Of a stretch of DNA of 64,000 nt, positions 15,751 to 64,000 are shown in pieces. How positions within the stretch are numbered: the stretch's first letter is position 1; the number at the start of each line of letters is the position of its first letter. The stretch comes from Mobula hypostoma (taxonomy: Eukaryota). A model generated the notes under the pieces. It made no database searches. It was given only the letters and a program-made list of their open reading frames with translations, and was not told where the DNA came from. The stretch covers positions 71,984,001 through 72,048,000 of the forward strand of contig NC_086108.1 of the NCBI RefSeq assembly GCF_963921235.1, given 5' to 3'. Both the position numbers and the translations under genes were made by a program.

Positions 15751-17449
15751 AATCTAAGTTAGATTTTTTAAATTGACTACAGCTTTGCGTTCAATACTAT
15801 AATTCCAAACAAACTCACTTCCAAACTCCTGGACCCAGGACTTAACACTTTCTTGAACTGGATTCATGACTTCCTGACTAGCAGATTACAATCAGTAAGG
15901 ATGGGTTTTAACCCTTGCACCATGATTATCCTCAGCATTCATGACCCACAAGGCTATGTCCTCATTCTCCTTCTCTACTGCCTATACCCTCATGACTGCT
16001 TGGCCAGGTTCCCCTCTAACTCCATCTAAACTGTGTAGGTGATACCAGCGTAGTTGTCCCTATCTCAAATAATGATGAGTCAGAATACAGGAAGGAGATA
16101 GAGTGCCTAGTGACAATGTATCATGACACCAATCTTTCCTTCAATGTCAGCAAATCAAAAGGGCTGTACAGTAGTTATTGACTTCAGGAAGTTGGGGGGG
16201 AAGGCACATGCTCCTGTTTACATCAGCTGTGCTGAGGTCATGATGGTCGAGAACTTCAAGTTCCTAGGAATGAAGCTTATTGATAATCTGACCAAGTCCA
16301 ACCACAATGATGCTGCAGCCGGGAAAGCTCAGCATCATCTCTACTTCCCCAGGAGGCCAAGGGTATGTGCCCACTTTGAACCGCACCAATTTCTATTGCT
16401 GCACCATAGAAAGCGTCCTATCATACAACTTGGTGTGGCAATTGCTCCACTCATGAGTGCAGAGAGTTGTGGACACAGCTCAGCCCATCATGGAAACCAG
16501 TCTCCTCTCAGTGGACTTCTCGCTGCCTTAGTAAAGCATCCAGCAGAATCAAAGGACCCACCCCGGGCATTCTCTCTCCTTTCCATCAGCCAGAAGATAC
16601 AAAAGCCTGAAAGCATGCACCACCAGACTCAAAGACAGCTTCTATCTCTCTGGTATAAGACTATTGAACAGTTCCCTATTTCAATACAATTGACTCTTGA
16701 CCTCACAATCTACCTCATATGTCCACCTGCACCATACTTTCTTTGTAACTGTAAAACTTTATTCTGTAGTTTGTTATTGTTTTACGTTGTACTACTCCAA
16801 TGCACTTGTAATGAATGGTATGCCAGACACATTTTTCACTGTAACCTGGTACATGTGGCAGTAATAAACCATTTTTACAATTTAGATGTTTCCCAGAAAC
16901 CACCCAGTTAATTTAAGTCTTGTACAAAGGCATGGTCCTGTAAGCCCCAGTAAAATCAGTGGGCAATGACAGAGAAATGCATGGTCAACTAATAACTCTA
17001 TTGTCTAGAAATGGTGGGAGAATTGTGATCTAGGAGTTAACTGGTGGGGTAAGCATTAGGGAACTGCATGAGCATAACAGTATTGCAAAGTATTCCCTTT
17101 AGCTTGTTTCTTCTATCAGATATCAACTGGCCTTCAACTGGCAGTAGTCATGGAAAAACAGTAGGGAGTGAAGAGGAGTGGTGGCAGAGTGAGTGAGATC
17201 ATTCAGTATGGGATTAGAAATCAGGAGCCAATGGAGAAGTGTCAGATCCTTGGAGATTATTCAGCACCTAACTCCCTGGCCAGGAACAGACCCATTAAGG
17301 AACTTAGGAGGAGAAGATCTCCTCCAATGTTCAAGCTTTGCCAATTGAAAAAAAGATGCAGAAGTAATACTGAATGTGCTTTTTCAAAAAATATTGCACA
17401 GTCTTAAACTTCTATTAGCCTGGTTACCACTGGGTGAGACAAGGTAAAA

Positions 17450-19086
17450 TGCAAACACAAGAAAATCTGCAGATGCTAGAATTTCAAGCAACACACATAA
17501 AAGTTGCTGGTGAGCGCAGCAGGCCAGGCAGCATCTCTAGGAAGAGGTACAGTCGACATTTCGGGCCGAGACCCTTCGTCAGGACTAACTGAAAGAAGAT
17601 CTAGTAAGAGATTTGAAAGTGGGAGGGGGAGGGGAAGATCCGAGAAGACAGGAGGGGGAGGGATGGAGCCAAGAGCTGGACAGTCAATTGGCAAAAGGGA
17701 TATGAGAGGATCATGGGACAGGAGGTCCGGGCAGAAAGAAAGTGGGGGGGGGGGAATCCCAGAGGATGGGCAAGGAGTATAGTAAGAGGGACAGAGGGAG
17801 AAAAAGGAGACAGAGAAAAAGAATGTGTGTATGTAAATAAATAACGGATGGGGTACGAGGGGGAGGTGGGGCGTTAAAAGAAGTTTGCGAAGTCAGTGTT
17901 CGTGCCATCAGGTTGGAGGCTACCCAGACGGAATACAAGGTGTTGTTCCTTCAACCTGAGTGTGACTTCATCCTCCACCATCAACTCTGCTCTCAAACGC
18001 ATCTCCCCCATTTCACGTACATCTGCTCTCACTCCATCCTCCCGCCACCCCACTAGGAATAGGGTTCCCCTGGTCCTCACCTACCCCACCCCACCAACCT
18101 CCGGGTCCAACATATTATTCTCCGTAACTTCCGCCACCTCCAATGGGATCCCACCACTAAGCACATCTTCACATCTTTCCCTCCCGCCCCCCCCCCGCTT
18201 TCCACAGGGATTGCTCCCTACGCGACTCCCTTGTCCATTCGTCCCCCCCATCCTCCCCACTGATCTCCCTCCTGGCACTTATCCTTGTAAGTGGAACAAG
18301 GGCTACACATGCCCTTACACTTCCTCCCTCAACACCATTCAGGGCCCCAGACAGTCCTTCCAGGTGAGGCGACACTTCACCTGTGAGTCGGCTGGGGTGA
18401 TATACTGCGTCCGGTGCTCTCGGTGCGGCCTTCTATATATTGGCGAGACCCGACGCAGACTGGGAGATTGTTTTGCTGAACACCTACATTCTGTCTGCCA
18501 GAGAAAGCAGGATCTCCCAATGGCCATACATTATAATTCCACGTCCCATTCCCATTCTGATATGTCCATCCACGGCCTCCTCTACTGTAAAGATGAAACC
18601 ACACTCAGGTTGGAGGAACAACACCTTATATTCCATCTGGGTAGCCTCCAACCTGATGGCACGAACATTAACTTCTCAAACTTCCGCTAATGCCTCACCT
18701 CCCCCTCGTACCCCATCCGTTATTTATTTATATACACACATTCTTTTTCTCTCTCTCTTCTTTTTTTCCCTCTGTCCCTCTCATTATACCCCTTGCCCAT
18801 CTTCTGGGCTCCCCCCCCCCTTTTCTTTCTCCCTAGGCCTTCTGTCCCATTATCCTCTCATATCCCTTTTGCCAATCAACTGTCCAGCTCTTGGCTCCAT
18901 CCCTCCCACTCGTGTCTTCTCCTATCATTTTGGATCTCCCTCTCCCCCTCCCACTTTCAAATCTCTTACTAGCTGTTCTTTCAGTTAGTCTTGACGAAGG
19001 GTCTCGGCCCGAAATGTCGACTGTACCTCTTCCTATAGATGCTGCCTGGCCTGCTGCGTTCACCAGCAACTTTTATGTGTGTTGCT
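17450..19086. mobile_element. Penelope-like element (Neptune-type GIY-YIG), inverted 3' arm plus direct arm
   Basis: The plus arm (about 17970-19086) encodes C..C..C and VIYCVRCSRCGLLYIGETRRRLGD.FAEH (GIY-YIG). The minus arm (17450 to about 17970) is a reverse copy of its 3' end. TSD TGAGACAAGGTAAAA at 17435-17449 and 19087-19101. Confidence 0.95.
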
Positions 19087-19961
19087 TGAGACAAGGTAAA
19101 ACATCACTTGTATAACACAATTGAACAGTCATTTGTTAATTCAATGTGTACTGCTGCTTGAGAACATGTCTCATCATTGATTTATCAACTTGTACTGTTG
19201 AGGCTCCTTCTCTGCTGGAAAAAGTAATTTTTATGAATCCTATTTGTTGTAAATGTATTGTTGTTTCCATACACCATCCTTTGTTTCTAAACACTGATTG
19301 AAAAGTGATAAGATATTATGTATATGTGTGCATCATGTTGGAGTGACATTCTCTAGGGACATCATGGCTCTAGAGGCTGCTAGGCATGCATAGTGATGTC
19401 TACTATTACATAACATATGGTTAGCATTACCTGTGCAATTTATTTTCCAGTTGATGGCGTTTGAACACTGTAGGGAAACCTATCAAAGACCTTCATTTTC
19501 CTGGGGGTAGAGTAGTGAATAATCTACAAGGATGTATCAATTTCCATTGGTTCCTGTTCTCTATTTCCAATATGAATGACCTCACTGACTCTGCTGTCAC
19601 TGGCTTTCATTCCCTGCCATTGTCTCCTTGATCCCACTTCCTGACAATTGATCTCCTCTTTGGTATTCTTCATCTTCAGTCTGACCTCCAGACTTCTTCC
19701 TGAGTCCCCTCCTTGAATTCCCATTTCTTGCTCTCCATCTCTAATTAACACTCCATTCTGTAATCAGCTAAGCAACTCATTCCAAGCTTTCCTTCATGTC
19801 TCTCCCCACCTCAGTCATCTCCCTGCACTCATGCCCCGTGATCTTCTCTGCATGCTCATCTTCCATTTCCTATCCATACAGCAATGCCACAATGTGAATT
19901 TCTAGCCCATTGTACTTGTATACTACTTTAGCATGTTCTTATGGCTTTGCTAAGTGCTTAC

Positions 19962-21779: not shown

Positions 21780-22878
21780 GAGACTTGGTAGACTGGGCTC
21801 AAAATTGCTTTGTCCTTGGGAGACAGCGGGCACCTGTGGAAGGGTGCTATTCTGCTGGGAGCTTTGTGAGTAGTGGCATTCCGCTGATGGAAATTTCAGA
21901 TACAGGCCAATTTGCAAGGTCTGAAACAAAAGGAAAGCACACAATGAAAGGTAGGACCCTTCAGAGAATTGAAGTATGGAAGGATTTTGGGAACAAGTCC
22001 ACCATTTCCTGAAAGTGGCACACAACTAGATAGAGGTGGTAAAGAAGGCATCTTTGTCAGTTGTGCTGTCAAGGATAAAATTTGGGAATTCATGTCACAG
22101 CTGCATAAAACTGGTTAGGCCACATTTGGAGCATTGTGTGCAATGTTTGTCACCACATTACACGAAGGATGTGGAGGTGTTGGAAGGGATGTAGATGACG
22201 TTAACCAGGGTGTTGCCTGAATGAGATAGTGTTAACTCTAAGGAGAGTTTGGACAAGGTTAGATCGTTTTTTCAGGGACTGAGGGATGACCTGATTATGA
22301 GGGTGTGGTAAACCATATATATGTTGTAACTGGGTTAACTGTCTGGACACGTCCCACTGCTGACTGCCCCTGTGGCTCCTCCCACAGATTCATGAATAAA
22401 TGTGTTTTTCCTTGCCCCTCCCCCTCAGTCCGGGGGAAGACACTCACCATGGAGGTCGTATTGTACAGCGAATAAAAGACTTTCGGTATTCTATCTAACC
22501 TCAGTCTTTTGAGTTATTGAAGGTGCTTCAGAGGGGCATAGAAAGGGCAGAGTTTTTTTTTCCTGAAGTGGAAATGTCAAATATTAGAGGGCATAGCTTT
22601 AAGGTCAGAGAAGGAAAGTTCAAAGGAGATTTTCAAGAGAAGTTCTTTCACACGGAGAAGTGTAAGTGCCTGGAATGTCCGCGCAGGAGAAGTGGTGGAA
22701 GCAGATAAGACTGAAGTATTCAAAAGGCATTTAAATAGGCACAGGAACAGGCAGGGAATGGAAGGGTATGGACCATTTACTGGCAGGTGGGATTAGTTTA
22801 AACTGAGATCACATACCTCACAGACTTTGTGGGCCAAAAAGCCTGTTCCTGTGCTGTGATATTCTAAGTTCTATGTTC
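21780..22878 (+). mobile_element. Old degraded CR1 LINE, interrupted by a Gypsy solo LTR
   Basis: Remnants of LVRPHLEHCVQ and RGHSFKVREGKFKG, with a TTCTAAGTTCTATG tail. Confidence 0.8.
22304..22530 (+). mobile_element. Solo LTR of the Gypsy family found at 49432
   Basis: TGTGGTAAACC...GGTGCTTCA, colinear with the LTRs at 49432 and 53675. Perfect 5-bp TSD GAGGG at 22299-22303 and 22531-22535. Confidence 0.95.
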
Positions 22879-25018: not shown

Positions 25019-25375
25019 TCATTCATGGGAAAGCAATGAACATTTTGCTGCAGTTTTCAACTTCTTACATGTGTGAGCAAGCTTTTCCTTGTGTAACAAG
25101 CATCAAGAGCAAGGATAGAAATTGTCTCATTTCAATTGAAGGTGAAAGCCATCTGTGTTTATCTCAAATTGGACCCAGAATAGAGTATTAGTGAAGCAAA
25201 AACAAGCACAGGTTTCACATGCTAGGCCTGTATTTGAACCTGATTACGTCATTTAGTAAGAAAACATTTTTTTTCAAAATCTTGTATAAAATTGTCTTAG
25301 GATATATTTTTATTCATATTGCTTTGGCTTATGGTTTTTAGTAACTTTACTATTCAACATTGTCAATAAATTTTC

Positions 25376-25655
25376 ATGCAACACACATGCAAGTTGCCGG
25401 TGAACACAGCAGGCCAGGCAGCATCTCTAGGAAGAAGTACAGTCGACGTTTTGGGCAGAGACCCTTCGTCAGGACTAACTGAAAGAAGAGCTAGTAAGAG
25501 ATTTGAAAGGGGGAGGGGGAGATCCAAAAATAGGAGAAGACGGGGAGGGATGGAGCCAAGAGCTGGACAGTTGATTGGCAAAAGGGATATGAGAGGATTA
25601 TGGGAAAGGAGGCCTAGGGAGAAGGAAAAAGGGGATGGGGGAGAAAATCCAGGAT
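25376..25655 (-). mobile_element. PLE pLTR fragment, same subfamily as 17450
   Basis: Closely similar to 17488-17770. Confidence 0.9.
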
Positions 25656-28950: not shown

Positions 28951-29491
28951 GCATGACTGGAAATCTGACAGAATGGCAGCAGGAAACACAGCAGTACAGT
29001 TAAGGGAAGGGCTGTTCTATTATTGTATACTGGTATCTGAAATCAGAAAACATCAAGGAACATTGAACGTCCCTGTGCCGAAGTGTCCTGTGGGGGGCAC
29101 GGCTTATTTTGTTGGTCAAAAGCCACTTCTGTTGTGTCGATTGTGATTGCTCAGTTTCAGAACCGCGTCAGCTCTTCCCACTGGTTGGCTGGCCTGCCAC
29201 AGCACCTCGTGTCCAGTTTTAAACACCTCGGGGGTATAAAGGATAGCACATGTGAAAGATTCTTTCACTTTCCCATTGTCCCCAGAACTGCTGGGAAGGT
29301 ATGCTCCACGTGCACTTTTAACTAAGTATCTGTTTGTTGAATATTTAGTTCTGTAGTTTGTGTAACTTGGGGGAACTTAAATGTTTGGTTTAATTTTTAC
29401 TGTTTGTAAATAAATGATTAATATACTTATTCATACTTGGTGTTTTCTGTCTCACTCACCAAACCGGTGAAACTGCTTCAACGATATATTT

Positions 29492-29509
29492 TGGCGCTGC
29501 AAGCAGTGT
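29492..29509 (+). promoter_or_regulatory. Primer binding site, tRNA-Ser-like
   Basis: TGGCGCTGCAAGCAG matches 13 of 15 bases of TGGCGCTGTGAGCAG, the complement of the vertebrate tRNA-Ser(CGA) 3' end as recalled from memory. It starts 3 nt after the LTR. Confidence 0.6.
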
Positions 29510-29589
29510 TCGTTGTTTGAGCAGAAACTGCTTTTCTTTAAAAGGTTATTTAAAACTGAAGACCATACCCCCCCCCCCGCCATATGAGA

Positions 29590-31310
29590 GATGCTGAGTC
29601 CTGGGGTGGAGTGATAACAGTGAGGGCTTTGAGAGTCTTTCTAACCTGCAGCTAATGCATACGGAATGAAATTGGACGCCACATTGTGTCCATACTTAAA
29701 ACATTGGGTTTGCCCAGGAGAAAGGATAGCTGGAGAGATGCTTTCCTGCTGTTTGCAGCGATTGTAAGACACCAGCATAAGATGATTGTGAATCTTAAGA
29801 ATGAGGTGGAGGACTTAAATCACTGCTGCATCATTATGAGATGGCCCAGATAGAGGCGGCAAAGTTAGAAGATAAGAATATAGAGATAGCTTGTCAGATA
29901 ATGAAGGTACAGCAATTAGAGGCTGCCCAGTGAGCCAATTGACAGCCCGATCCTGTTAAAGTTGGAACTTTCATGTGGCAGGGCAGTGATCCTGCTGTGT
30001 TGTTGGGGATGGGGATATTTGGTTGGATGATAAAAAAAGAGGGAGAGAGGGTAGCGTGGACTCTTCAGTTTATTCTTCGAAATGATTGGCCTCTCCCCTG
30101 CATACCTGCCAGGCCAGTTATCACATGCTCCCACTCCCACCGTGAGGACATTTGCCTGTGGCTTCTTAGGTAAAGAGCAAATGTCAGGATGAGTTTTCTA
30201 CATAGAGAGTGGTGAGTGCATGGAATGGGCTGCCAGCAGCTGTGGTGGAGGCAGATACGATAGGGTCTTTTCAGAGACTCCTGGACAGGTACATGGAACC
30301 TAGAAAAATAGAGGGCTATAGGTAAACCTAGGTAATTTTTAAGGTAAGGACATGTTTGGCACAGCTTTGTGGGCCGAAGGGCCTGTATTGTGCTATAGGT
30401 TTTACATGTTTCTATGTTTTCCCAGGAGGGGGAGGAGGGTCACGAACATGGGGGCAATAGTACAATGGGCCCCTTCAAAACAACAGAGATCAAGGAGTCC
30501 TCTGCTAATGAATTAGTGAGATTAGGGGATAAGTATAGACAGAAGCCTGGAAAGTCTCTGGCCGTGTGGTTGTTAAGGATATGGGATGAGGGAGTTACTG
30601 GAAGTGATCCTATCTAATAGAGGGACAAGTGTTTTAGGGAGCCTTTCATCCCAAAATGTGATCAATAACACCCTGAGAACACTGCTTGCTTCCCCTGAGC
30701 ATAATGCATCACTAAGGGATTGAGTAGTAGCAGCAATTAGATTCAGGTGTCCTTCTATCTCTGAGAAGATTTGAAAACCCCAAGCAGAATGGAACACAGT
30801 ATAGTGAGGCACAACAACGTCCCCCCCGCCCACTTCGCCTGGGGGCTCTTATTACAGAATTATACAGCATTATGGTAGCCCACCAGAGGATGTTGAGCTA
30901 ACATCTGGCCTTATAGGACATGTGGTTATAGCAGCAGCTTCCCATTTAAAAGGAATAGTGCTGTCTTTAATAGCACCAGCTGTTGGTTGGCCAATAAGTA
31001 CAGTGATTCAACTATGACAAGGTCAGGAGTATGTAGAAGAGGGTATAGAAGTTGGATGAGCAGATGGGGTGTGGGAGATCCTGCGTGTTCCGTAAGGGAG
31101 GGTTTTGGTGTTGCTTAAAGCTGGGGTCATGGAGGAACAGGTAGATGGGATTCCCACCCTCACCCTCAATGCAAAGTGGAAGGAGTACTGCCAGGGGAAG
31201 CGAGAAAAGGGGGAAGGGTCATTCAGGGAGAAAGGTCATTCTTCAAGCCCTCTCATAATAAGGACTCCTGTTGTCCTCTGCTGGCAGACCTTCAGCACTG
31301 GGAATTGGGG
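29590..31310 (+). pseudogene. gag: Degraded ERV-L/S-like gag
   Basis: ELVRLGDKYRQKPGKSLAVWLLRIWDEG (30509-30592) and VLLKAGVMEEQVDGIPTLTL (about 31108-31167) resemble the ERV-L/MaLR/Fv1-type gag blocks YRQxPGE..WxLRxWD.G and LxxxGV....IDxxPT. It carries multiple stops, and its start is approximate. Confidence 0.75.
30180..30420 (+). mobile_element. CR1 3' tail inserted in the ERV gag
   Basis: AGAGAGTGGTGAGTGCATGGAATGGGCTGCCAG...GGGCCGAAGGGCCTGT followed by a TTTCTATG tail. Confidence 0.85.
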
Positions 31311-31399
31311 GTCATTCAACTTGCATCCCTCTTTCCTGCAAATAGAGAAGGATTTGAATGTGGAGAAATATTTGAGGTTGGTCACATCAATCAATTTTC

Positions 31400-31897
31400 T
31401 TGAGAGAGATAGAGAGAGAGAGAGTGTGTGTGTGTGTGTGGATTTTGCCTTTAAGAGGGATGTGAATGCAGAACAGTGTATGTTGGCCAGATGGGATGCA
31501 TGGTGGAGCACAGGAGGTGTATCTGTTTGGGTTACCCGGAGAATTTGGTGGCAGCAGAACACTGCATTCGCAATGGCCATAGGATTGACTTCGGTGGCAC
31601 AAAACTACAGTGGCAAGCCAATGGCTTATGGGACCACCTGGTAAAGGAAACCACTGGAATGAAGATGAATGTCTTGCTCTAAGTAAGAACTGGAATTCGA
31701 TTATAAACAAGGTGAGAGAGTAGAAACCTGATTGGATGAGGACTGACCAATAAACACAGATGGACAATGGGGTATAAATACCACCGGACTAGAAATGCTC
31801 AGGCATCATCCCTGATGAAGATGGCAGAGTACGCCATCGAAACGTTGGTTATAATCGATACCTGTACCCCGCTAGAAGCCCAAGAAAAGTTTATTCA
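31400..31897 (+). mobile_element. PLE 3' fragment of a different family, with a hammerhead ribozyme
   Basis: GIY-YIG C-terminal remnant YVGQ(M)G..EHRRCI..AEHCIRNGHRIDF, and a hammerhead core at 31812-31846. Confidence 0.75.
31809..31850 (+). ncRNA. Minimal type I hammerhead ribozyme motif
   Basis: CTGATGA-A-GATGGC agagtac GCCATC-GAAA-CGTT. Stem II has 6 bp and stem III is the palindromic ACGT. Confidence 0.65.
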
Positions 31898-32199
31898 GTT
31901 TTAGGGATATGGTAGATGTGGTAGAAATTTGGGAAACTTTATTCTGAAGATGAGATGCCCACATTTGAGATGGATATATGCATTTGGGGATTTGGGGGAA
32001 ATTCTAGTCATTCTTTTTGATTTTTTGAGATACTTGGTGACTAATCAGGAACAAGCGTGTTTGTATCTTCCTGCGTTACAGAATGGCAAAACAGTGGATG
32101 CAGACTTGTGGTGGGAAATCCTGCGATACATTCCTGAGGATGGCTTTTGAATTTGCACACTGGAGTATCAGGTCAGAATGATGTAAATGTATGAGAACT

Positions 32200-33390
32200 C
32201 TTTACTACATCGTGGATGGGATGCAACTAATAGCAATCCCTTCTGAGGACAAGGAAAAAGATTGCTGGGGAAAATGATCTGGCTTCTTGGGTTTGGCATT
32301 CAGTCTTGGGGAAACTGGGAGGGAGTAGTCTATTCCAGCCAACGTTGACCCGGAGTTTGGTATCAGCCCTGAGCCTTCATATCCTTGGCAGAGTAAGTGT
32401 TTTAAGGTTGGGTACTCCCCTACGTAGCATTCGTTTAACTGGAAGGTCCCAACACTTAAAGTGATTTCCCCACCTGACAGAGCGTTGGTAAGCACAGGTA
32501 CGAGGTGGATGGTAATTGTAAGCAGGAACAGTATGCTGGTGCGGCTGTGTCTTTGTCAAATGGTGTTGAGAAGGTGGGTCCTTGCTGGACACTGGCACTT
32601 ACTGGGTATGTAGTTCCTCAGCTTACCCGTGGCTCCCCGTAGGGTGTTGCAGCTGATATGTGATGCCAGACATGTAGAATCCCAGTGCTCTGGATGAGTA
32701 CCTTGCCAATGCCGGTTGGCTACTACAGAGGAAGGAAGGTTTTGAATGCTACCTTTTCCCTGTATGATACTGCCAGACTGTCTCAGGAACATCAAAATAC
32801 TTACGCTTGTCTCCTCTATCATTGTGGAAGGAGTGATATCTTTCGCTCTCTTTTTTGTGTGTGTGAGTGTGTGTGAGAGAGAGAGAGAGAGAGAACGTGC
32901 GCTGCGGGATGTCTTGATGCTGCTTTCTGCTGCACGTGTGTGGGAGGGCAGCAGGAGGCTTTGGGGCTCTTACGGTCTTTCTGTCATTCATTCTTTGGGA
33001 TTTTTCTTCTGTTTTGAGGATGTCTGCGGAGAGTAAGAATTTCAGGTTGGATATTGTGTACATTCTCTGATATTAAATGGAGGTATTGAACTGATATCGA
33101 TGGCTTAGATTACCTGCTCACAAAAGAAAGGTGGCAGATGTTATTAGTCAGGAATGCTGCACCTACATTCCTGATGAGTCAGGAAACATCACTCACCTCG
33201 CTGATCACATCTGAGAGTCAATGTATAGAATTAAGTGTGAGACCATCTCAATGGCTATTACACTCCGGGGGATGTATGGTGGTTTTTTGGGGCACAGGAA
33301 GGTTGCTGGACTACTGTAGTACACTGGGGGGTGGAATGACTATTGGGTTTACAGCACTGGGTATTGTACTTGTGTTTTATACGTAGATTA
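32200..33390 (+). pseudogene. env: Degraded gamma-type env (SU C-terminus and TM)
   Basis: GTYWVCSSSAYPWLPVG (32594-32644). ISD-like GLDYLLTKE/GGRC then ECCTYIPDESGNIT (about 33099-33195, CX6CC-type, frameshifted). A hydrophobic anchor follows at about 33330-33385. Confidence 0.8.
32824..33090 (+). mobile_element. Non-autonomous retroelement 3' fragment inserted in env
   Basis: Ends AAGAATTTCAGGTTG..TACATTCTCTGATATTAAATG..TTGAA, the same tail as the reverse copy at 63795-64000. Confidence 0.65.
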
Positions 33391-33974
33391 GTGGCAATTT
33401 CACAAGAGTCATACTAGTCTGAAGGTTGGATTGTCACGGTGTTGTGACTTTTGAGGGGTGGATGGTCCTGTGGGGGCGTGGCTTACTTTGCTGATCAAAA
33501 GCCACTTCCATTGCGTCCATTGTGATTGCTCAGTTTCAGAACTGCATCAGCTCTGCCCACTGGTTGGCTTGCGTGCCACAGCACCTCATGTCCAGTTTCA
33601 AACACCTCGGGGGTATAAAGAACAGCACATGTGAAAGGTACTGTCTCTTTCCCTTTGTCCCCAGAACCGTTGGGAAGGTATACACCACACGCACTTTTGA
33701 CTAAGTATCTGTTTGTTGGCTATTTCGTTCTGTAGTTTGTGTAACTTGGGGGAACGTAAGTGATTTGCTGATTTTTTAAAAAAAACTTTTTGTAAATAAA
33801 TAATTAATGTACTTATTCGCAGTCAGTGTTTTCTGTTTCACTCACCAAACCAGTGAACCGGCTTCAAAGTTATAAGTAGATGGCATCAGGTTAGCGATGA
33901 GGATAGATTAAATGAGCTTTTTTGTTTGGAATGAAGGAGGATGAGAGATGTGCAAGATAAGAGGCAGAATTTTA

Positions 33975-35599
33975 GCCAGGAAATGGTGTTGGATAGGCTG
34001 TTGGGTCTGAAGGCTGATAAGTCCCCAGGACCTGATGGGTTGCATCCCAGGGTACTTAAGGAGGTGGCTTTAGAAATCGTGGACGCATTGGTAATCATTT
34101 TCCAATGTTCTATAGATTCAGGATCAGTTCCTATAGATTGGAGGGTGGCTAATGTTGTCCCTCTCTTCAAGAAGGGAGGAAGAGAGAAAACAGGGAATTA
34201 TAGACCTGTTAGCCTGACGCCGGTGGTGGGAAAGATGCTGGAGTCAATTATAAAAGATGAAATTACGACACATCTGGATGGCAGTAACAGGATCGGTCCG
34301 AGTCAGCATGGATTTACGAAGGGGAAATCGTGCTTGACTAATCTTCTGGAATTTTTTGAGGATGTAACTATGAAAATGGACAAGGGAGAGCCAGTGGATG
34401 TAGTGTACTTGGACTTTCAGAAAGCCTTTGATAAAGTCCCACATAGGAGATTAGTGGGCAAAACTAGGGCACATGGTATTGGGGGCAGAGTACTGACATG
34501 GATTGAAAATTGGCTGGCTGACAGAAAACAAAGAGTAGCGATTAACGGTCCCTTTCGGAATAGCAGGCGGTGACCAGTGGGGTACCATAGGGTTCAGTGC
34601 TGGGACCGCAGCTGTTTACAATATATATTAATGATTTAGATGAGAGAATTAAAAGTAACATTAGCAAATTTGCCGATGACACAAAGCTGGGTGGTAGTAT
34701 GAAATGTGAGGAGGATGTTATGAGAATGCAGGGTGACTTGGACAGGCTGGGTGAGTGGGCAGATGCATGGCAGATGCAGTTTAATGTGGATAAATGTGAG
34801 GTTATCCACTTTGGTGGTAAGAACAGGAAGGCAGATTATTATCTAAATGGAGTCAAGTTAGGAAAAGGGGAAGTACAACGAGATCTAGGTGTTCTTGTAC
34901 ATCAGTCACTGAAAGCAAGCATGCAGGTACAGCAGGCAGTGAAGAAAACTAATGACATGCAGGCCTTCATAACAAGGGCAATTGAGTATAAGAGCAAAGA
35001 GGTCCTTCTGCAGCTGTACAGGGGCCTGGTGAGACCACACCTGGAGTACTGTGTGCAGTTTTTGTCTCCAAATTTGAGGAAGGACACTCTTGCTATTGAG
35101 GGAGTGCAGTGTAGGTTCACAAGGTTAATTCCCGGGATGGCGGGACTGTCATATGTCAAAAGATTGGAGCGACTGGGCTTGTATACTCTGGAATTTAGAA
35201 GGCTGAGAGGGGATCTTATTGAAACATATAAGATTATTAAGGGATTGGACACGCTGGAGGCAGGAAGCATGTTCCCGCTGATGGGTGAGTCCAGAACCAG
35301 AGGCCACAGTTTAAGAATAAAGGGTAGGCCATTTAGAACGGAGTTGAGGAAAAACTTTTTCACCCAGAGAGTGGTGGATATATGGAATGCTCTGCCCCGG
35401 AAGGCTGTGGAGGCCAAGTCTCTGGATACTTTCAGGAAAGAGATGGATAGAGTTCTTAAAGATGGCAGAATCAAAGGTTATGGGGATAAGGCAGAAACTG
35501 GATACTGATTGTGGATGATCAGCCATGATCACAGTGAATGGCGGTGCTGGCTCGAAGGGCCGCATGGCCTACTCCTGCACCTATTGTCTATTGTCTATT
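33975..35599 (+). mobile_element. Young 5'-truncated CR1 LINE (RT domain) inserted in an older CR1 (about 33880-35925)
   Basis: KSPGPDGLHPRVLKE, NYRPVSL, YLDFQKAFDKVPH and SKFADDTKLGG. One frameshift plus stops near 34550-34590, and a (CTATTGT)n tail. Confidence 0.97.
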
Positions 35600-42323: not shown

Positions 42324-44588
42324 CAAACAACAGGAATTCTGCAGATGCTGGAAATTCAAGCAACACACATCAAAGTTGCTGGTGAACGCAGCAGGCCAAG
42401 CAGCATCTATAGGAAGAGGCGCAGTAGATGTTTCAGGCCGAGACCCTTCGTCAGGACTAACTGAAGGAAGAGTGAGTAAGGAATTTGAAAGCTGGAGGGG
42501 GAGGGGGAGATGCAAAATGATAGGAGAAGACAGGAGGGGGAGGGATAGAGCTGAGAGCTGGACAGGTGATAGGCAAAAGGGGATACGAGAGGATCATGGG
42601 ATAGGAGGTCCGGGAAGAAAGATGGGGGGGGGGGTTGACCCAGAGGATGGGCAAGGGGTATATTCAGAGGGACAGAGGGAGAAAAAGGAGAGTGAGAGAA
42701 AGAATGTGTGCATAAAAATGAGTAACAGATGGGGTACGAGGGGGAGGTGGGGCCTAGTGAAAGTTAGAGAAGTCAATGTTCATGCCATCAGGTTGGAGGC
42801 TACCCAGACGGAATATAAGGTGTTGTTCCTCCAACCTGAGTGTGGCTTCATCTTTACAGTAGAGGAGGCCGTGGATAGACATGTCAGAATGGGAATGGGA
42901 TGTGGAATTAAAATGTGTGGCCACTGGGAGATCCTGCTTTCTCTGGTGGACAGAGCGTAGATGTTCAGCAAAGCGGTCTCCCAGTCTGCGTCGGGTCTCA
43001 CCAATATATAAAAGGCCACATCGGGAGCACCGGACGCAGTATATCACCCCAGTCGACTCACAGGTGAAGTGATGCCTCACCTGGAAGGACTGTTTGGGGC
43101 CCTGAATGGTGGTAAGGGAGGAAGTGTAAGGGCATGTGTAGCACTTGTTCCGCTTACACGGATAAGTGCCAGGAGGGAGATCAGTGGGGAGGGATGGGGG
43201 GGACGAATGGACAAGGGAGTTGTGTAGGGAGCGATCCCTGCGGAATGCAGAGAGAGGGGGGGAGGGAAAGATGTGCTTAGTGGTGGGATCCCGTTGGAGG
43301 TGGCGGAAGTTACGGAGAATAATATGTTGGACCCGGAGGCTGGTGGGGTGGTAGGTGAGGACCAGGGGAACCCTATTCCTAGTGGGGTGGTGGGAGGATG
43401 GAGTAAGAGCAGATGTACGTGAAATGGGGGAGATGCGTTTAAGAGCAGAGTTGATAGTGGAGGAAGGGAAGCCCCTTTCTTTAAAAAATGAAGACATCTC
43501 CCTCGTCCTAGAATGAAAAGCCTCATCCTGAGAGCAGATGCGGCGGAGACGGAGGAATTGCGAGAAGGGGGATGGCGTTTTTGCAAGAGACAGGGTGAGA
43601 AGAGGATAGTCCAACATATTATTCTCCGTAACTTCCGCCACCTCCAACGGGATCCCACCACTAAGCACATCTTTCCCTCCCCCCCTCTCTCTGCATTCCG
43701 CAGGGATCGCTCCCTACACAACTCCCTTGTCCATTCGTCCCCCCCATCCCTCTCCACTGATCTCCCTCCTGGCACTTATCCGTGTAAGCGGAACAAGTGC
43801 TACACATGCCCTTACACTTCCTCCCTTACCACCATTCAGGGCCCCAAACAGTCCTTCCAGGTAAGGCATCACTTCACCTGTGAGTCGACTGGCGTGATAT
43901 ACTGCGTCCGGTGCTCCCGATGTGGCCTTTTATATATTGGTGAGACCCGACGCAGACTGGGAGACCGCTTTGCTGAACATCTACGCTCTGTCCGCCAGAG
44001 AAAGCAGGATCTCCCAGTGGCCACACATTTTAATTCCACATCCCATTCCCATTCTGACATGTCTATCCACGGCCTCCTCTACTGTAAAGATGAAGCCACA
44101 CTCAGGTTGGAGGAACAACACCTTATATTCCGTCTGGGTAGCCTCCAACCTGATGGCATGAACATTGACTTCTCTAACTTCCGCTAGGCCCCACCTCCCC
44201 CTCGTACCCCAGCTGTTACTCATTTTTATGCACACATTCTTTCTCTCACTCTCCTTTTTCTCCCTCTGTCCCTCTGAATATACCTCTTGCCCATCCTCTG
44301 GGTCACCCCCCGCCCCCCGTCTTTCTTCCCGGACCTCCTGTCCCATGATCCTCTCGTATCCCCTTTTGCCTATCACCTGTCCAGCTCTCGGCTCTATCCC
44401 TCCCCCTCCTGTCTTCTCCTATCATTTTGCATCTCCCCCTCCCCCTCCCCCTCCAGCTTTCAAATCCCTTACTCACTCTTCCTTCAGTTAGTCCTGACGA
44501 AGGGTCTCGGCCTGAAACGTCGACTGTGCCTCTTCCTATAGATGCTGCTTGGCCTGCTGCGTTCACCAGCAACTTTGATGTGTGTTGC
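42324..44588. mobile_element. Penelope-like element (Neptune-type), head-to-head inverted duplication
   Basis: The minus arm (42324-43613) carries RT thumb SQFLRLRRICS plus GIY-YIG. The plus arm (43609-44588) carries GIY-YIG. TSD TAGGATAGAAATAG at 42310-42323 and 44589-44602. Confidence 0.97.
44490..44525 (+). ncRNA. Minimal type I hammerhead ribozyme in the PLE pLTR
   Basis: AGTC-CTGACGA-AGGgtctcggCCT-GAAA-CGTC^GACT. Stem I is AGTC/GACT, the core is intact and the predicted cleavage is after 44521. Confidence 0.8.
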
Positions 44589-44929
44589 TAGGATAGAAAT
44601 AGAACTAGTTTTGTTTCCTTTTATAGTGAACATGTTGGTGACATAATTCAAACAAGAAATAGCAAATAGAATGAGACATGGGAACAAATGGAAAAGTTCT
44701 AGACTGTACACATATAGTATAAATGGCCAAATATTTCATATATGGTTATGAATTTCATATATATACAAGCTGTCAGAAAAAGAATTTAATTTTGTTATAT
44801 ATGTGAGTTTAAATGAGGAACATTTAAAATGGTCTAAATTCTTTTTTAATTTTTAAGATAGTATTTTTCAATAGAGGGTTTCTTTCCTGCAGTTGGGCTA
44901 TCCACATACTGTTTCAAGGCCATATTAGA

Positions 44930-48800: not shown

Positions 48801-49686
48801 TTTATATAATTTTAAAGAATTTTCTTGTACCACACAGCTTTTTGCTTTCAGAAAATAATCATAAAGTGCTACAAGACAACAACAGGAGCTTTGGCCACCA
48901 TGTCATTTTGACTGTTCTGTCCACTTGCACTATTCCCATTCGCCCCCATTAGGCCCATGTCCTTCCATGCCTTACCTGCTTAAATGCCTGTCTTAAGTGT
49001 CTCTAAAATGCTGTGATTGTAACTGACTACATAATCTCCTCTTGCAGCAAGTTTCAGATATCAACCACTCTCTGCATTTAAAAAAAAACAAATTCCATTT
49101 ACAATTCCTTCCTCTCACTTAAATCTATGTCCTCTTGTTTTTTTGATTCTGACTGTCTACCCAATCTACCACTCTTATAATTTTGCATATCCTGATCAGG
49201 TTAGCCTCTAATCTACTTTTGCTCCAAGGGAATCAAACCCAGCCTAATCAATCCCACCATGAACCAGGCAACATCCTAGTGAACCTCCTATGCATTCAGT
49301 CCAGTGCAACTATATCCTTCCAACTGGGTGACGACCAGAACTGCACCCTGTGTACCTCGAGCTTGCTCTAGACACTGTTCTGAAAAATTGCATTTTAAGT
49401 CCCAATTTTTATATTCTATGCCCTGACCCATTGTGGTAAACCATGTATATATGTTGTAACTCGGTTACCTGTCTGGACACACCCCTCTGCTGACTGCCCC
49501 TGTGGCTCCTCCCACAGAGTCCTGTATAAAGGTGTTCGCCTTGCCCCTCCCCCTCAGTCCGGGGGCAGACACTCACTGTGGAGGTCGTATTGTACAACGA
49601 ATAAAAGCCTTTCAGTATTTTACCAAACCTCAGTCTTTTGGAGTAATTGAAGGTGCTTCAATTTTATTCGCTGTATGTTTTAAAAC

Positions 49687-52600
49687 ATGGAACAGGCCCT
49701 GAGACCAGAAAAATTAGACCTCAATCCGCAAACACCTGAAGCTGGAAACGCTTTCGAACTCTGGCTGGCCTGCTTCAAAGCGTATCTAGAGGAGATTAAA
49801 GCGACCGACCCCGTAGCGAAGTGCAGAGTTCTACTCTCCAGGGTCAGTCCACGGGTCTATTCGCTGATCAGAGACCAGCCGAACTACGACGGCGCAATGA
49901 ACGCACTCAAAAGACAATACCTGCGGCCGATAAACAGCGTCTATGCTCGGCACCGTTTAGCGACACGGCAACAAGGCCCGGGGAATCGAGTGCTGAGTTC
50001 GTCCAGGCCCTACGGTCGCTCGTGCGAGCCTGCAATTGCCAGGAGCTGACGGCGGCGCAGCATGCAGAACTCCTAGTGAGGGACGCCTTCGTCACGGGGA
50101 CCAGGTCAGTGTACGTGCGCCAGCGGCTGCTGGAAAAAGCCGATCTTACCCTAAATTCGGCGATGGAGCTGGCTAATACGTTGGAGGCCGCTCTGCATAA
50201 CTCCGAGGCTCTCCAGGCACGCGATCCCCCGATGGCCTCGTGGGTGCCGCAGACCCCGCAACCCGCCGGCGAATCGACCTCGGCTGCAGCCAGTCATGAG
50301 TCCGCGAAGTGCTACTTCTGCGGACTGGAGAAGCACCCCTGGAAACGCTGCCTGGCCCGACAAGCTACCTGCTCCAGCTGCAGAAAGAAGGGCCACCTCG
50401 CCAAGGTCTGTAAGTCAAAACTGCAAGCGGGATCGAGCAGCGCTGCGTGCGAGACGTGGGGGTCGCCATCTTCCCTGCACACTGCCACCACATGCGAGAC
50501 ATGGGGGCCGCCATCTTCCCTGCACGCCACCACCACATGCGAGACATGGGGGCGGCCATCTTGGTCGGCGCCACCTCCCACCGCCTACGACCAACAGGTG
50601 CTCACGGGGCACCCCACCACGCCGGACCAAGACAGCGACCCCACCCTGGCTTCTGTGACCCTCCACCAAAGCGCTCCCCACCAGCTCGCAAGGTCAATGA
50701 CAGACATCCTGGTGGAGGGGCACAGGACAAGCTGCCTGTTTGACACAGGCAGCACGGAGAGTTTTATCCACCCGGCCACGGTGCAGCATTGTGGACTCAT
50801 GGTACGACGGTAAGTTGGAGGGTCACCATGGCCTCCAGGTCGCATACAACAGACATCCGGGGGGGTTGTGTAGTGATACTAGTGGTGCAGGGCACAGAAT
50901 ATCGGGACTTTATGTTACTGGTCTTGCCTCAACTGTGTGCCCCTGTGCTGTTGGGGTTGGACTTCCAGAGCCACCTGAAAAGCGTGACAATGAAGTATGA
51001 TGGGCCCCTCCCGCCAATTTCTGTCATAAATCCCCTGTTTTGTAGAGATATGTCACGTACCCCGCTACTGACCACACACACACACCAACGCGCGCATCCC
51101 ACCCAACATCATGCCAACTGCCAGACTACCGACACCACTTGCGGCCTCTCCACCCTCAGGATCCCTCCCCCACCGCTGTTCGCCAACCTGACCCCCAACT
51201 GTAAACATGTGGCAACTAAAAGCAGGAGGTACAGCGCGGGGGACAGAGCTTTCATTAAGTCGGAGGTGCAGCGGCTGCTCAGGGAGGGGGTCATTGAGGC
51301 AAGCACAAGTCCTTGGAGGGCGCAGGTGGTGGTTGTTCGGAACGGGGAGAAAAATAGGATGGTCGTGGACTATAGCCAGACCATCAATAGGTTCACGCAG
51401 CTCGACGCGTACCCTCTACCCCGCATCGCGGATATGGTCAATCAGATAGCAGGGTACAAGGGGTACTCGACCATAGACCTAAAATCCACTTACCATCAGC
51501 TTCCCATCCGCCAGGAGGACCGCCCTTACACTGCCTTCGAGGCGGACGGCAGGCTTTATCAATTCCTGCGCGTCCCCTTTGGTGTCACGAATGGTGTATC
51601 TGTCTTCCAGAGGGCAATGGACTGGATGGTGGACCAGTGCCAACTGAAGGCCACGTTCCCATATCTGGATAACATCACCATCTGCGGTCACGACCAGCAG
51701 GATCACGACAACAACCTTCAAAAATTTCTCCAAGGGGCCAAATCTTTCAACCTCGCCTATAACAAGGACAAGTGTGTATTTGGGACCACCCGACTTGCTA
51801 TCCTTGGGTGTGTCGTGGAGAATGGAGTCATTGGCCCTGACCCCGACCGTAAGCGCCCCTTGTTGGAACTCCCTCTTCCCAATACCCTCACAGCCCTCAA
51901 AAGGTGCCTGGGCTTCTTTTCATATTACGCCCGATGGGTCTCTAACTATGCAGACAAGGCCCGCCCCCTGGTCGAGTCCATCACATTCCCCCTCTCACCC
52001 GAGGCCCGCGCGGCCTTCAGCCGCATAAAAGGGGACATTGCCAAAGCAGCAATGCATGCGGTGGATGAGGCCATTCCCTTCCAAGTAGAGAGTGACGCCT
52101 CCGACTTTGCGCTGGCTGCTACCCTCAACCAGGCAGGAAGACCAGTGGCGTTCTTCTCCCATACCCTTCAAGGCCCTGAAATTCGGGACTCCACGTTGGA
52201 GAAAGAGGCCCAGGCCATAGTGGAAGCTATAAGGCACTGGAGGCACTATCTTGCCGGTAAAAGGTTCACCCTGCTAACTGACCAGCGCTCAGTCGCATTC
52301 ATGTTTAATAATCAGCAGCGGAGCAAAATCAAAAATGATAAAATTCTGAGGTGGAGAATCGGACTCTCCACCTACAACTATGACATCATGTACAGGCCTG
52401 GGAAGCTCAACGAACCCTCCAATGCCCTATCCCGGGGAACGTGCGCCAGCGCGCAGATCGACCAGATATACGCCCTACATGTAGACCTTTGCCACCAGGG
52501 AGTCACCCGGCTTTTCCACTTCGTGAAAGCCCGGAACCTGCCTTACTCCCTTGAGGAGATCAGGACGATGACCAGGGACTGCCAAGTCTGCGCAGAGTGC

Positions 52601-53605
52601 AAACCGCACTTCTACCGACCCGAAAAGGCACCACTCATCAAGGCCACCCGTCCCTTTGAGCGACTGAGTGTTGACTTTAAGGACCCCCTTCCCTCCTCCG
52701 ACCGCAATGTGTACTTTCTTAACGTAATTGACGAGTACTCGCGGTTCCCCTTCGCCATCCCCTGCCCCGACACCACTACCACGTCAGTTATAAAAGCCCT
52801 GCGCAAGCTCTTCACTCCGTTCGGATACCCATGCTATATCCACAGTGACAGAGGGTCCTCGTTTATGAGTGACGAGCTGCGCCAATATCTACTGGCTAGG
52901 GGAATTGCAACCAGTAGGATCACGAGCTATAATCCCCGGGGGAATGGACAGGTAGAGAAGGAGAATGGCACGGTGTGGAAAGCCACACTCTTAACCCTCA
53001 GGTCAAAGGGACTGCTGGTCTCCCGCTGGCAGGAGGTCCTTCCCGAGGCACTCCACTCCATCCGCTCCCTGTTATGCACAGCCACCAATGCCACCCCTCA
53101 TGAGCGGCTCTTTTCTTTTCCCAGAAAATCGACCACTGGAACCACCCTACCATCTTGGCTGACGTCCCCGGGGCCAGTGCTGCTCCGGAAACATGCGAGG
53201 AGCAATAAACACTCCCCGATCGTCGAGAGGGTTCACTTACTTCATGCGAACCCCCAGTATGCCTACGTGGTTTTACCTGATGGGCGGGAGGACACGGTCT
53301 CCATCCGCGACCTGGCGCCCGCAGGAGATCCGGGCCCCTACCCTGAACACTCCGTGGTGACTAATGACCCTGTACCCACCAATGTATGTACCTACGAGAC
53401 ACCGTGCAGCTCAAACCCTATACAGACACCACACGACACTCCCATACCGGGCGCGACGCACACGCATGAGGGATTACCGACGCCTAACGTGCTGGCACCT
53501 GAAGTCAGGCCGGAGCCAGCACAACCGCCATCACCGGTGCAATCACCGCCAGTGCTACGTAGATCACAGCGACGGACTCGACTGCCTGATAGACTTGACC
53601 CGTAA
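49687..53605 (+). pseudogene. Gypsy gag-pol polyprotein, probably one ORF broken by two -1 frameshifts (about 49972 and 50808)
   Basis: Two CX2CX4HX4C knuckles, protease LFDTGS, RT PFG..YLDN, RNase H DASD/EKE/TDQ, and integrase H-H-C-C with D-D-E (VDFK, HSDRG, GQVE). No chromodomain was recognised. Confidence 0.93.
50448..50562 (+). repeat. 45-bp tandem repeat (about 2.5 copies) in the gag-PR linker
   Basis: Units start at 50448, 50493 and 50538 and encode CETWG.PSSLH..TT. Confidence 0.95.
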
Positions 53606-54242
53606 ATATACTTATTGTAAATATTGTCAGTCACTTCACCCCGCGGGACTCTTTTTAAAAAAAGGAGGGGTGAATGTGGTAAACCATGTATATATGTTGT
53701 AACTCGGTTGCCTGTCTGGACACACCTCTCTGCTGACTGCCCCTGTGGCTCCTCCCACAGAGTCCTGTATAAAGGTGTTCGCCTTGCCCCTCCCCCTCAG
53801 TCCAGGGGCAGACACTCACTGTGGAGATCGTATTGTACAGCGAATAAAAGCCTTTCAGTATTTTACCAAACCTCAGTCTTTTGGAGTAATTGAAGGTGCT
53901 TCACCTATGCAGGCAAGAATGCCAATTTAGTATCTTCACTCTATCTACCTGTGTTGAGGCTTTCAGGGAAATGTAGTCTTGAATTTTGAGGTTCCTCTGT
54001 TCATCAGCATTCCACAGTGCCCTACTAATTACTGAGTACGTCCTACCTGTATTTGACTTCCCAACATGCGTCACTTTGTACTTATCAGGATTAAATTCCT
54101 TTTGCCAATGCTCTGCTCAACTTTCCATCCGATCTATAACCTGAAGTAGCCTTAGACAACATTCCTCAATTTCCATCAGGCCACACACTTTCTTGTCATC
54201 CACAAACTTACTGACCATACTTAATTGTACCTCTATATATAA

Positions 54243-60060: not shown

Positions 60061-62345
60061 AATAGACAATAGACAATAGGTGCAGAAGTAGACCATTCGG
60101 CCCTTCGAGCCTGCACCGCCATTCTGAGATCGTGGCTGATCATCTACTATCAATACCCAGTTCCTGCCTTGTCCCCATAACCCTTGATTCCCCTATCCAT
60201 AAGATACCTATCTAGCTCCTTCTCAAAAGCATCCAGAGAATTGGCCTCCACTGCCTTCTGAGGCAGCGCGTTCCACACCTCCACAACTCTCTGGGAGAAG
60301 AAGTTCCTCCTCAACTCTGTCCTAAATGACCTACCCCTTATTCTTAAACCATGCCCTCTGGTACTGGACTCTCCCAGCATCTGGAACATATTTCCTGCCT
60401 CTATCTTGTCCAATCCCTTAATAATCTTATATATCTCAATCAGATCCCCCCTCAATCTCCTTAATTCCAGTGTGTACAAGCCCAGTCTCTCTAACCTCTC
60501 TGCGTAAGCCAGTCTGGACATCCCAGGAATTAACCTAATGAACCTACGCTGCACCTCCTCCACAGCCAGGATGTCCTTCCTTAACCCTGGAGACCAAAAC
60601 TACACACAATACTCCAGGTGTGGTCTCACCAGGGCCCTGTACAAATGCAAAGGGATTTCCTTGCTCTTGTACACAATTCCCTTTGTAATAAAGGCCAACA
60701 TTCCATTAGCCTTCTTCACTGCCTGCTGCACTTGCTCATTCAGCTTCAGAGACTGCTGAACAAGTACTCCTAGATCTCTTTGTATTTCTCCCTCACCTAA
60801 CTCCACACCATTCAGATAATAATCTGCCTTCCTGTTCTTGCTCCCAAAGTGAATAACCTCACACTTAATCACATTAAACGCCATCTGCCAAGTTTCTGCC
60901 CAGTCACCCAGCCTATCCAAGTCACCTTGAATTCTCCTAACATCCTCATCACATGTCACACTGCCACCCAGCTTAGTATCATCAGCAAACTTGCTGATGT
61001 TATTCACAATGCCTTCCTCTAAATCATTGACGTAAATCGTAAACAGCTGTGGTCCCAATACCGAGCCCTGTGGTACCCCACTAGTCACCACCTGCCATTC
61101 CGAGAAACACCTATTCACTGCTACCCTTTGCTTTCTATCTGCCAATCAGTTTTCTATCCATGTCAATATCCTCCCCCCAATGCCATGAGCTCTGATTTTA
61201 CCCACCAATCTCCTATGTGGTACCTTATCAAATGCCTTCTGAAAGTCAAGGTACACCACATCCACTGGATCTCCCTTGTCTATCTTCCTGGTTACATCCT
61301 CGAAAAAGTCCAATAGATTAGTCAAGCATGATTTGCCCTTGGTAAATCCATGCTGGCTCGGTCCAATCCTATCACTGCTATCAAGATATGCCGCTATTTC
61401 ATCTTTAATAATGGACTCTAGCATCTTCCCCACTACTGATGTTAGGCTAACAGGGCGATAGTTCTCTGTTTTCTCCCTCCCTCCTTTCTTAAAAAGTGGG
61501 ATAATATTAGCCATTCGCCAATCCTCAGGAACTGATCCTGAATCTAAGGAACATTGGAAAATGATCACCAATGCATCCACAATTTCCAGAGCCACCCGCT
61601 TTAGTACCCTAAGATGCAGACCATCTGGACCTGGGGATTTGTTAGCCTTCAGTCCCATCGGTCTACTCATCACCGTTTCCTTCCTAATGTCAATCTGTTT
61701 CAGTTCCTCTGTTATCCTATGTCCTTGGCCCATCCATACATCTGAGAGATTGCTTGTGTCTTCCATAGTGAAGACAGAACCAAAGTACTTATTAAATTCG
61801 TCTGCTATTTCTCTGTTTCCCAATACAATTTCTCCCAATTCATTCTTCAAGGGCCCAACATTGTTCTTAACTATCTTCCTTCTCTTCACATACCTAAAAA
61901 AACTTTTGCTATCCTCCTTTATATTCCTAGCTAGCTTGCATTCATACCTCATTTTTTCTCCCCATATTGCCTTTTTAGTTAAGTTCTGTTGCTCCTTAAA
62001 AATTTCCCAATCATCCGTCTTCCCACTCACCTTAGCTCTGTTATACTTTTTTAGTTCTATGCTATCTCTGACTTCCTTTGTCAACCACTGTGGCCACTTT
62101 CCCCCCTTTGAATCCTTCCTTCTCCGGGGGATGAACTGATTTTGCACCTCGTGCATTATTCCCAAGAATACCTGCCATTGCTGTTCCACTGTCTTTTCTG
62201 CTAGGATATCCGACCAGTCAACTTTGGCCAGCTCCTCACTCATGGCTCCATAGTCTCCTTTGTTCAACTGCAATACTGACACTTCTGGTCTGCCCTTATC
62301 CCTCTCAACTTGCAGATAAAAACTTATCATATTATGGTCACTCCT
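60061..62345 (-). mobile_element. Young 5'-truncated CR1 LINE (ORF2 with two in-frame stops)
   Basis: ORFs 61146..62390, 60600..61145 and 60150..60563 share one frame. Motifs SDHN, PGPDG, YLDFQKAFD, QGSVLGP and FADD, with a (CTATTGT)n tail. Confidence 0.97.
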
Positions 62346-63795: not shown

Positions 63796-64000
63796 CAAAG
63801 GTTTCAAAGGTACATTTAATGTCAGAGAAATGTACACAATATACACATCCTGAAATTCTTTTTCTTCACAACCATCCGTGAAAACAGAGGAGTGCCCCAA
63901 AGAATGGATGACAGTTAAACGTTAGAACCCCAAAGCTTCCTCCAGCTCCCCCCTCCCACGTGTAAGCAGCAGCAAAGCGGCAACCCTCCCTCCTCCACCA
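63795..64000 (-). mobile_element. Non-autonomous retroelement 3' end, same family as 32824-33090, runs off the window
   Basis: Minus strand GAATTTCAGGATG..TACATTTCTCTGACATTAAATGTACCTTTGAAACCTTTGA. Confidence 0.6.

Follow-up and report, generated by a model that had tools for sequence, protein, structure and literature searches.

Mammalian MaLRs derive from endogenous retroviruses (ERVs) of the ERV-L type, have neither pol nor env, are mobilised in trans and have copy numbers in the tens of thousands. In Xenopus tropicalis, the family XtERV-S includes a deleted subfamily, Xt-S4 to Xt-S14, made up of 11 structurally similar copies of ~4 kb at different target sites (PMC8278194). The chicken EAV-HP elements carry gag and env without pol and are multi-copy, with a spread that is supposed to be helper-assisted (PMC3747184, PMC4607243), and ERVs whose env is of the gamma type are described from six cartilaginous fish (Chen et al., bioRxiv 2021.11.23.469661). 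Here we analysed 64,000 bases of Mobula hypostoma contig NC_086108.1 (positions 71,984,001 to 72,048,000; hereafter the window), in which the element at 29084-33874 is best read as a provirus that is both ancient and dead and that comes from an XtERV-S-like class III family with an ERV-L-type gag and a gamma-type env. An earlier note on this DNA had proposed a pol-less and env-retaining provirus; the element is older and more broken than that note supposed, and the best explanation is that it does nothing today.

Gag, env and the loss of pol

The element is bounded by paired long terminal repeats (LTRs), which the earlier note had judged by eye to be about 85% alike and which align between 29085-29488 and 33465-33874 at 84.9% over 411 columns (E 5e-131). 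They differ at 54 of 404 aligned sites (32 transitions and 22 transversions), a Kimura two-parameter (K2P) distance of 0.149. The 5' end is TGT and both LTRs finish near ATA, where the class III definition is TGT...ACA; the flanks agree at three of the five bases of the 5-base target-site duplication that was sought, and a duplication is not clear. The primer-binding-site (PBS)-like sequence and the polypurine tract (PPT) lie where that note had placed them (Table 1), and the primer may be of the tRNA-Ser type; no tRNA gene was found within the window to set beside the site. The internal region measures 3973 bases and, once three inserts are removed, 2937, which bears out the estimate of ~3 kb. 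The element has the make-up expected of a non-autonomous pol-less ERV, with pol absent and the cis signals kept. Rfam gave no match across the window, and related DNA was not found among viral, metagenome or prokaryote contigs.

A search of the gag piece at 30604-31230, translated with stops read through, by phmmer against 1.84 billion representatives returned four matches at E <=0.001, two of which are true gag relatives, P0003 (E 7e-9) and P0006 from a newt (E 5e-4), the remaining two being repetitive chance matches. Searched back onto the window with tblastn, P0003 spans 30480-31236 (E 1.6e-14), and a profile search yielded eight relatives from newt, lizards, a snake and two unnamed records; one is a lizard protein labelled 'Fv1-like', and another is a Gag-Pol of Varanus that has a reverse transcriptase (RT) domain. 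In a by-eye count over the 20 residues of the major homology region (MHR), the element is identical at 8-13 positions to the seven class III rows and at 3-5 positions to the 16 other rows of Fig. S6 of the XtERV-S paper. The relatives and this count support the ERV-L-like, class III gag claimed before. For P0003, the Atlas gave Fv1 as the nearest named structure (TM-score 0.36/0.50, below the bar) and spuma Gag as the nearest named protein by features (0.84), both leads only. The C-terminal motif, recognised by eye from the bullfrog element, lies 260 bases past DGIPT, against ~249 in the related bullfrog ERV, and as this spacing fits, gag would end at ~31403, directly before the microsatellite.

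The gag sequence at 30480-31403 holds many stops and frameshifts, and visual inspection of the three forward frames revealed no Cys-His box in this decayed sequence. Neither tblastn nor profile hidden Markov models (HMMs) detected the 5' part at 29587-30181, and when the gag piece was compared with longer proteins through a word index, none of 1681 candidates matched. Among the relatives, the newt proteins P0006 and P0013 both lack a capsid stretch that is present in P0012 and P0015 (alignment A3), a shared gap that suggests that this gag clade has, in a newt, a subfamily with an internal deletion and multiple copies. In the Varanus protein P0017, RT follows the Gag C-terminus directly with no protease between; this reflects either a deleted copy or an error in the gene model.

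The env motifs are collinear, running from the N-terminus (32166-32245) through the end of the surface subunit (SU; 32600), the 'stutter' sequon (32745), the end of the immunosuppressive domain (ISD; 33105) and the cysteine pair (33152) to the hydrophobic anchor, an order that agrees with the XtERV-S paper (PMC8278194, Fig. S7 and Table 2). The env motifs reported in the earlier note are indeed present at 32600, 33105 and 33152, and none of 60 shuffled windows contained the ISD end together with the CC pair. As far as motifs can tell, the ISD, CX6CC, anchor and stutter sequon of a gamma-type transmembrane subunit (TM) all appear in order, decayed and frameshifted, and gag and TM together support probable membership in an XtERV-S-like class III group. 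Database searches with env were all negative (0 of 1140 candidates at E 10, no Pfam family and only chance matches in the PDB).

The term 'env-retaining' does not survive the comparison, as env is only a remnant with several internal deletions. By-eye alignment leaves 23 bases between two motifs (near 32207-32229) where the frog relative has ~90 that include CXXC; the SU-end motif is 64 bases from the stutter sequon (near 32681-32745), whereas XtERV-S has 51 codons (>150 nt) from the furin site alone; and the sequon is ~31 codons from the first cysteine, against 38, which makes the ISD short. The two regions that mark a working env, CXXC in SU and the furin site, are thus both missing by spacing in this by-eye alignment, the second with the cleavage site and fusion peptide, as is part of the ISD. 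Since the spacing reveals these missing regions, env in its present form would be incapable of membrane fusion. LQRK at 32724 was considered as a furin site and rejected, as it stands just before the stutter sequon, within the first heptad repeat.

For pol, 12 frame read-throughs of 29500-33464 and the short pieces gave no Pfam match to any protease, RT, RNase H or integrase family, and a related class III RT gave nothing inside the element below E 20 by tblastn. As a positive control, the Gypsy pol at 51200-52400 was recovered both by Pfam and by tblastn (RT at 51407, E 1e-6). Pfam was likewise silent on the element's gag and env, and its silence on pol is weak alone; for this reason the claim of pol loss is carried by size. 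From the gag end to 31971 there are 570 bases, or 128 without the Penelope-like fragment, and the pro-pol of XtERV-S takes 3489 bases (Yedavalli et al. 2021, PMC8278194). The earlier note had reported neither RT nor integrase: the absence of RT stands, protease was not found either and the loss of pro-pol is near-total, but a short C-terminal remnant of integrase apparently survives at 31971-32081. Its motif has a single match in 64 kb (0-0.03 per shuffle), and together the integrase-end and env-start motifs have one match each in the window, in the correct order (0 to 0.13 per shuffle). Both patterns are post hoc, written once the two sequences had been compared, and first versions with other spacing gave no match. 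The remnant has no Pfam, PDB or Atlas support; the Atlas on 31905-32147 returned a best score of 0.82 and no lead. That same stretch was rejected as a dUTPase remnant, the motif spacing being too short and no match being found.

Related copies, age and later insertions

Four contig sets from three organisms (A, B and C) were aligned to 28960-33464 at 80% likeness; in these data contig depth gives no copy number, a hole proves nothing, and the places listed are a selected 40 of 1176. The single-copy 5' flank and the LTR are spanned by contigs of organism B (6 differences in 381 bases) and of organism C (39 in 347), and the locus-like pieces listed sum to 71 differences in 2710 for B (2.6%) and 229 in 2052 for C (11.2%). 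Because such flank-spanning contigs occur in both, the insertion is older than the split of A and C, in line with the LTR distance. The insertion is fixed in three related species, and as it is common to species 11% apart it sets a minimum relative age for the family.

That the family existed follows from the many other contigs that cover the gag-capsid and env patches, and here the multi-copy membership proposed earlier finds its support: in run X1, 17 contigs carry another letter at 31144 and 11 do so at 32262. Small indel differences of these other contigs concentrate at the frame breaks of this copy. In organism B, one related contig lacks insert 3 and rejoins at 33088, a sign that it may share the short ISD.

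Contig cover as a copy count was not used as evidence. Among the places listed, only the locus's own contig is present at 31085, at 31904-32010 and, in three of the four runs, at 30145-30153; in run X1 just two other contigs differ at 29164, a hint of few close siblings. A separate observation concerns 29111-29563: in run X1 contig cover is ~70x deeper over the 3' part of the LTR than over its 5' part, all four runs show a like contrast, and 29132-29292 is skipped by one contig; this points to subfamilies with exchanged U3.

Three host repeats interrupt the element (Table 1). Insert 2, whose family we take to be Penelope-like, occupies the pol-deletion junction; it has no Pfam match at 31462-31900, and its contig depth is high and climbs toward the 3' end. 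An exact 6-base repeat flanks it on both sides, noticed post hoc; of 20000 pairs of 14-base windows drawn at random, 2.3% had a 6-mer in common. This repeat modestly favours a clean Penelope insertion into a junction that had already been joined. Insert 3 is skipped by related contigs in all four runs; TGATATC was rejected as its duplication, since contig joints set the ends at 32791/33091. The microsatellite at 31401-31451 resembles that of insert 3 (32872-32926) at 73% over 55 bases of low complexity, and the tract past gag may be a fragment of the insert 3 repeat family.

Table 1. Features of the provirus and of its inserts, in window coordinates.
Feature	Start	End	Strand	Remarks
5' LTR	29084	29488	+	Starts TGT; TATA-like box ~29235 and AATAAA-like box ~29408, read from sequence
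PBS-like sequence	29492	29509	+	TGG start, three bases past LTR
5' part of gag	29587	30181	+	Broken; coiled-coil region and, around 30005-30025, a DGDIW-type motif, recognised by eye only
Insert 1: 3' tail of very high-copy repeat like a long interspersed nuclear element (LINE)	30182	30419	+	12 other matches in window; contig depth >1 million
Gag capsid to C-terminus, class III	30480	31403	+	MHR 30534-30593, DGIPT 31144, C-terminal motif 31376-31399, TGA 31401
(GA)n(GT)n microsatellite with a short spacer	31404	31455	+	Directly past gag end
Insert 2: 5'-truncated Penelope-like fragment	31462	31900	+	GIY-YIG-like piece, terminal repeat; AGGGAT at 31456 and 31903
Probable extreme 3' end of pol (integrase C-terminus), remnant	31971	32081	+	By eye against bullfrog element; candidate env splice acceptor ends 32081
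Env remnant, SU and TM start	32082	32790	+	N-terminal motifs 32106-32245, SU-end motif 32597-32680, heptad 'stutter' sequon 32745
Insert 3: high-copy microsatellite-bearing repeat	32791	33091	+	4-base repeat at bounds; second copy 63803-63982
Env TM remnant	33092	33400	+	Shortened ISD ending LDYLL (33105), frameshifted CX6CC region (33139-33160), second heptad repeat, membrane anchor (~33333-33383)
PPT	33453	33462	+	Just before 3' LTR
3' LTR	33463	33874	+	LTR alignment

How the defective provirus may have arisen

The explanation we favour, at an even chance, is that the integrating genome had become defective beforehand and that an intact family member copied it in trans; about half of this confidence falls on a defective template that made many copies. 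Pro-pol would have been lost before integration, from the gag end to the last integrase codons, together with several pieces of env, and the defective genome would have kept its cis signals (LTR, PBS, leader and PPT). Its RNA would have been packaged, reverse-transcribed and integrated in the germ line by the enzymes of the intact member. The three host repeats inserted afterwards. This defective-template reading draws on the coexistence of several large deletions, on the intact cis signals, on the apparently clean insertion of the Penelope fragment and on the short ISD that one B contig seems to share. Four separate large losses within ~3 kb (pol and three in env) appear to exceed the usual neutral decay at 13% LTR divergence, and both the cover of gag-capsid and env patches by many other contigs and, by analogy, the 4-kb deleted subfamily of the nearest described relative, with its distinct target sites, would count in the same direction. 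Several points weigh against it. Chance would seldom put an insert right on the junction (roughly 10%, given ~128 of 3700 bases and three inserts), the 6-base repeat was noticed after the fact, and Penelope elements often leave no duplication. The short-ISD hint comes from one contig, of unstated alignment extent, in one run, a joint of gag end and integrase remnant without the Penelope insert is not among the 15 of 1264 joints listed, and no helper was seen, the sole intact pol in the window belonging to a Gypsy-type element with other LTRs.

How far such a template spread, and whether the losses came after integration, divides the remaining possibilities. We consider it unlikely that the element is part of a subfamily of ERV-S-like elements that depends on a helper and was amplified in rays, with at least 10 insertions sharing the gag-end/integrase-end junction and still carrying env remnants; if true, that subfamily would be a very old MaLR-like intermediate between an enveloped class III retrovirus and an env-less, pol-less parasite. 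Rather doubtful is a complete provirus that lost pol and parts of env later, by ordinary local deletions unrelated to the inserts and as a one-off: the copy is very old, by its K2P distance and by its presence in species 11% diverged, which leaves the time, and the absence of a sibling junction among the joints listed agrees with it, but it needs several independent large deletions within 3 kb, and the short ISD apparently recurs in one related contig. The microsatellite and Penelope-like fragment sit exactly between the gag end at 31403 and the integrase remnant at 31971, and Penelope copies are very abundant in the contig runs, as would be expected if pol had been removed, as a one-off, by the inserting repeat or through recombination of two Penelope copies that had landed at its two ends; this we regard as decidedly unlikely, for the exact flanking repeat (2.3% by chance) fits a clean insertion and the env deletions are left unexplained. 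Very improbable is the strongest version, a lineage that spread with working Gag and Env and borrowed Pol alone. Gag does appear full length to its end, the env splice-acceptor region is kept and EAV-HP shows that such a design can spread, but the env here lacks the CXXC region, the cleavage site and fusion peptide and part of the ISD, by which fusion would be abolished.

Neighbouring elements and known systems

The window holds other mobile elements. A young Gypsy-type LTR element lies at 49432-53903; its 229-base LTRs are 97.8% alike, and it has a gag-like frame of 337 codons and a pol frame of 953 codons that matches RT and RNase H. A related solo LTR (89%) stands at 22304-22530. The Gypsy-type element was rejected as a helper for the provirus, having different LTRs and an RT with 23% identity to the class III RT. 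Two inverted Penelope-like copies at 42359-44589 are 97.7% alike over 981 bases, and further copies are present at 17447-19089 and 25372-25643. A LINE with long RT frames (33886-35599) begins ~12 bases past the 3' LTR of the provirus and has an 81% related inverted copy at 60061-61687.

The closest described relatives of the provirus are XtERV-S and the bullfrog ERV (PMC8278194), which share with it an ERV-L-type gag of the same MHR pattern and are collinear with it at the motifs of the gag end, the integrase end and the env start. XtERV-S has, like the element, a gamma-type TM with ISD, CX6CC and stutter sequon and a similar env layout. Its Ser PBS has been tested, that of the element being putative, and its LTR of 705 bases compares with ~405 here. 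XtERV-S is young and intact, with pro-pol and dUTPase; the element is ancient, deleted in pol and env, and housed in a cartilaginous fish. Xt-S4 to Xt-S14 come nearer in form, both they and the element being laid out as LTR-PBS-internal-PPT-LTR in about 4 kb. Their LTR keeps the 3' half of the full element's with the 5' half replaced, and in our LTR it is the 3' part that is covered deeper; amplification is demonstrated for them and not for the element.

Among ERVs of cartilaginous fish, ERV-SA.a-Ppe combines a class III pol with a gamma-type env, its pol group being SnRV-related by description (Chen et al., bioRxiv 2021.11.23.469661), and the lineages of that survey may already include the family of the element. 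In the open literature apart from the large ERV surveys, we found no direct description of a pol-less gag-and-env ERV lineage, in sharks or rays among others, or of class III ERVs of elasmobranchs. The suffix Ppe presumably denotes a sawfish. A single decayed copy matters little in itself; what it adds is an XtERV-S-like class III family with a gamma-type env to those of cartilaginous fishes. Should many insertions prove to have the junction in common, it would follow that class III retroviruses of fishes gave rise long ago to offshoots that lacked pol and depended on a helper, and the insertions would form a datable series for the same step-by-step loss of pol and env from which the MaLRs arose. 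The element itself is not a MaLR, as its env remnant is present where MaLRs have no env. EAV-HP is unlike it in being Alpharetrovirus-related (class II) and recent, with an env near that of ALV-J and with pol-bearing members known. Even if the lineage is real, its pol-less gag/env architecture is not a new kind, having precedents in EAV-HP and in Xt-S4 to Xt-S14.

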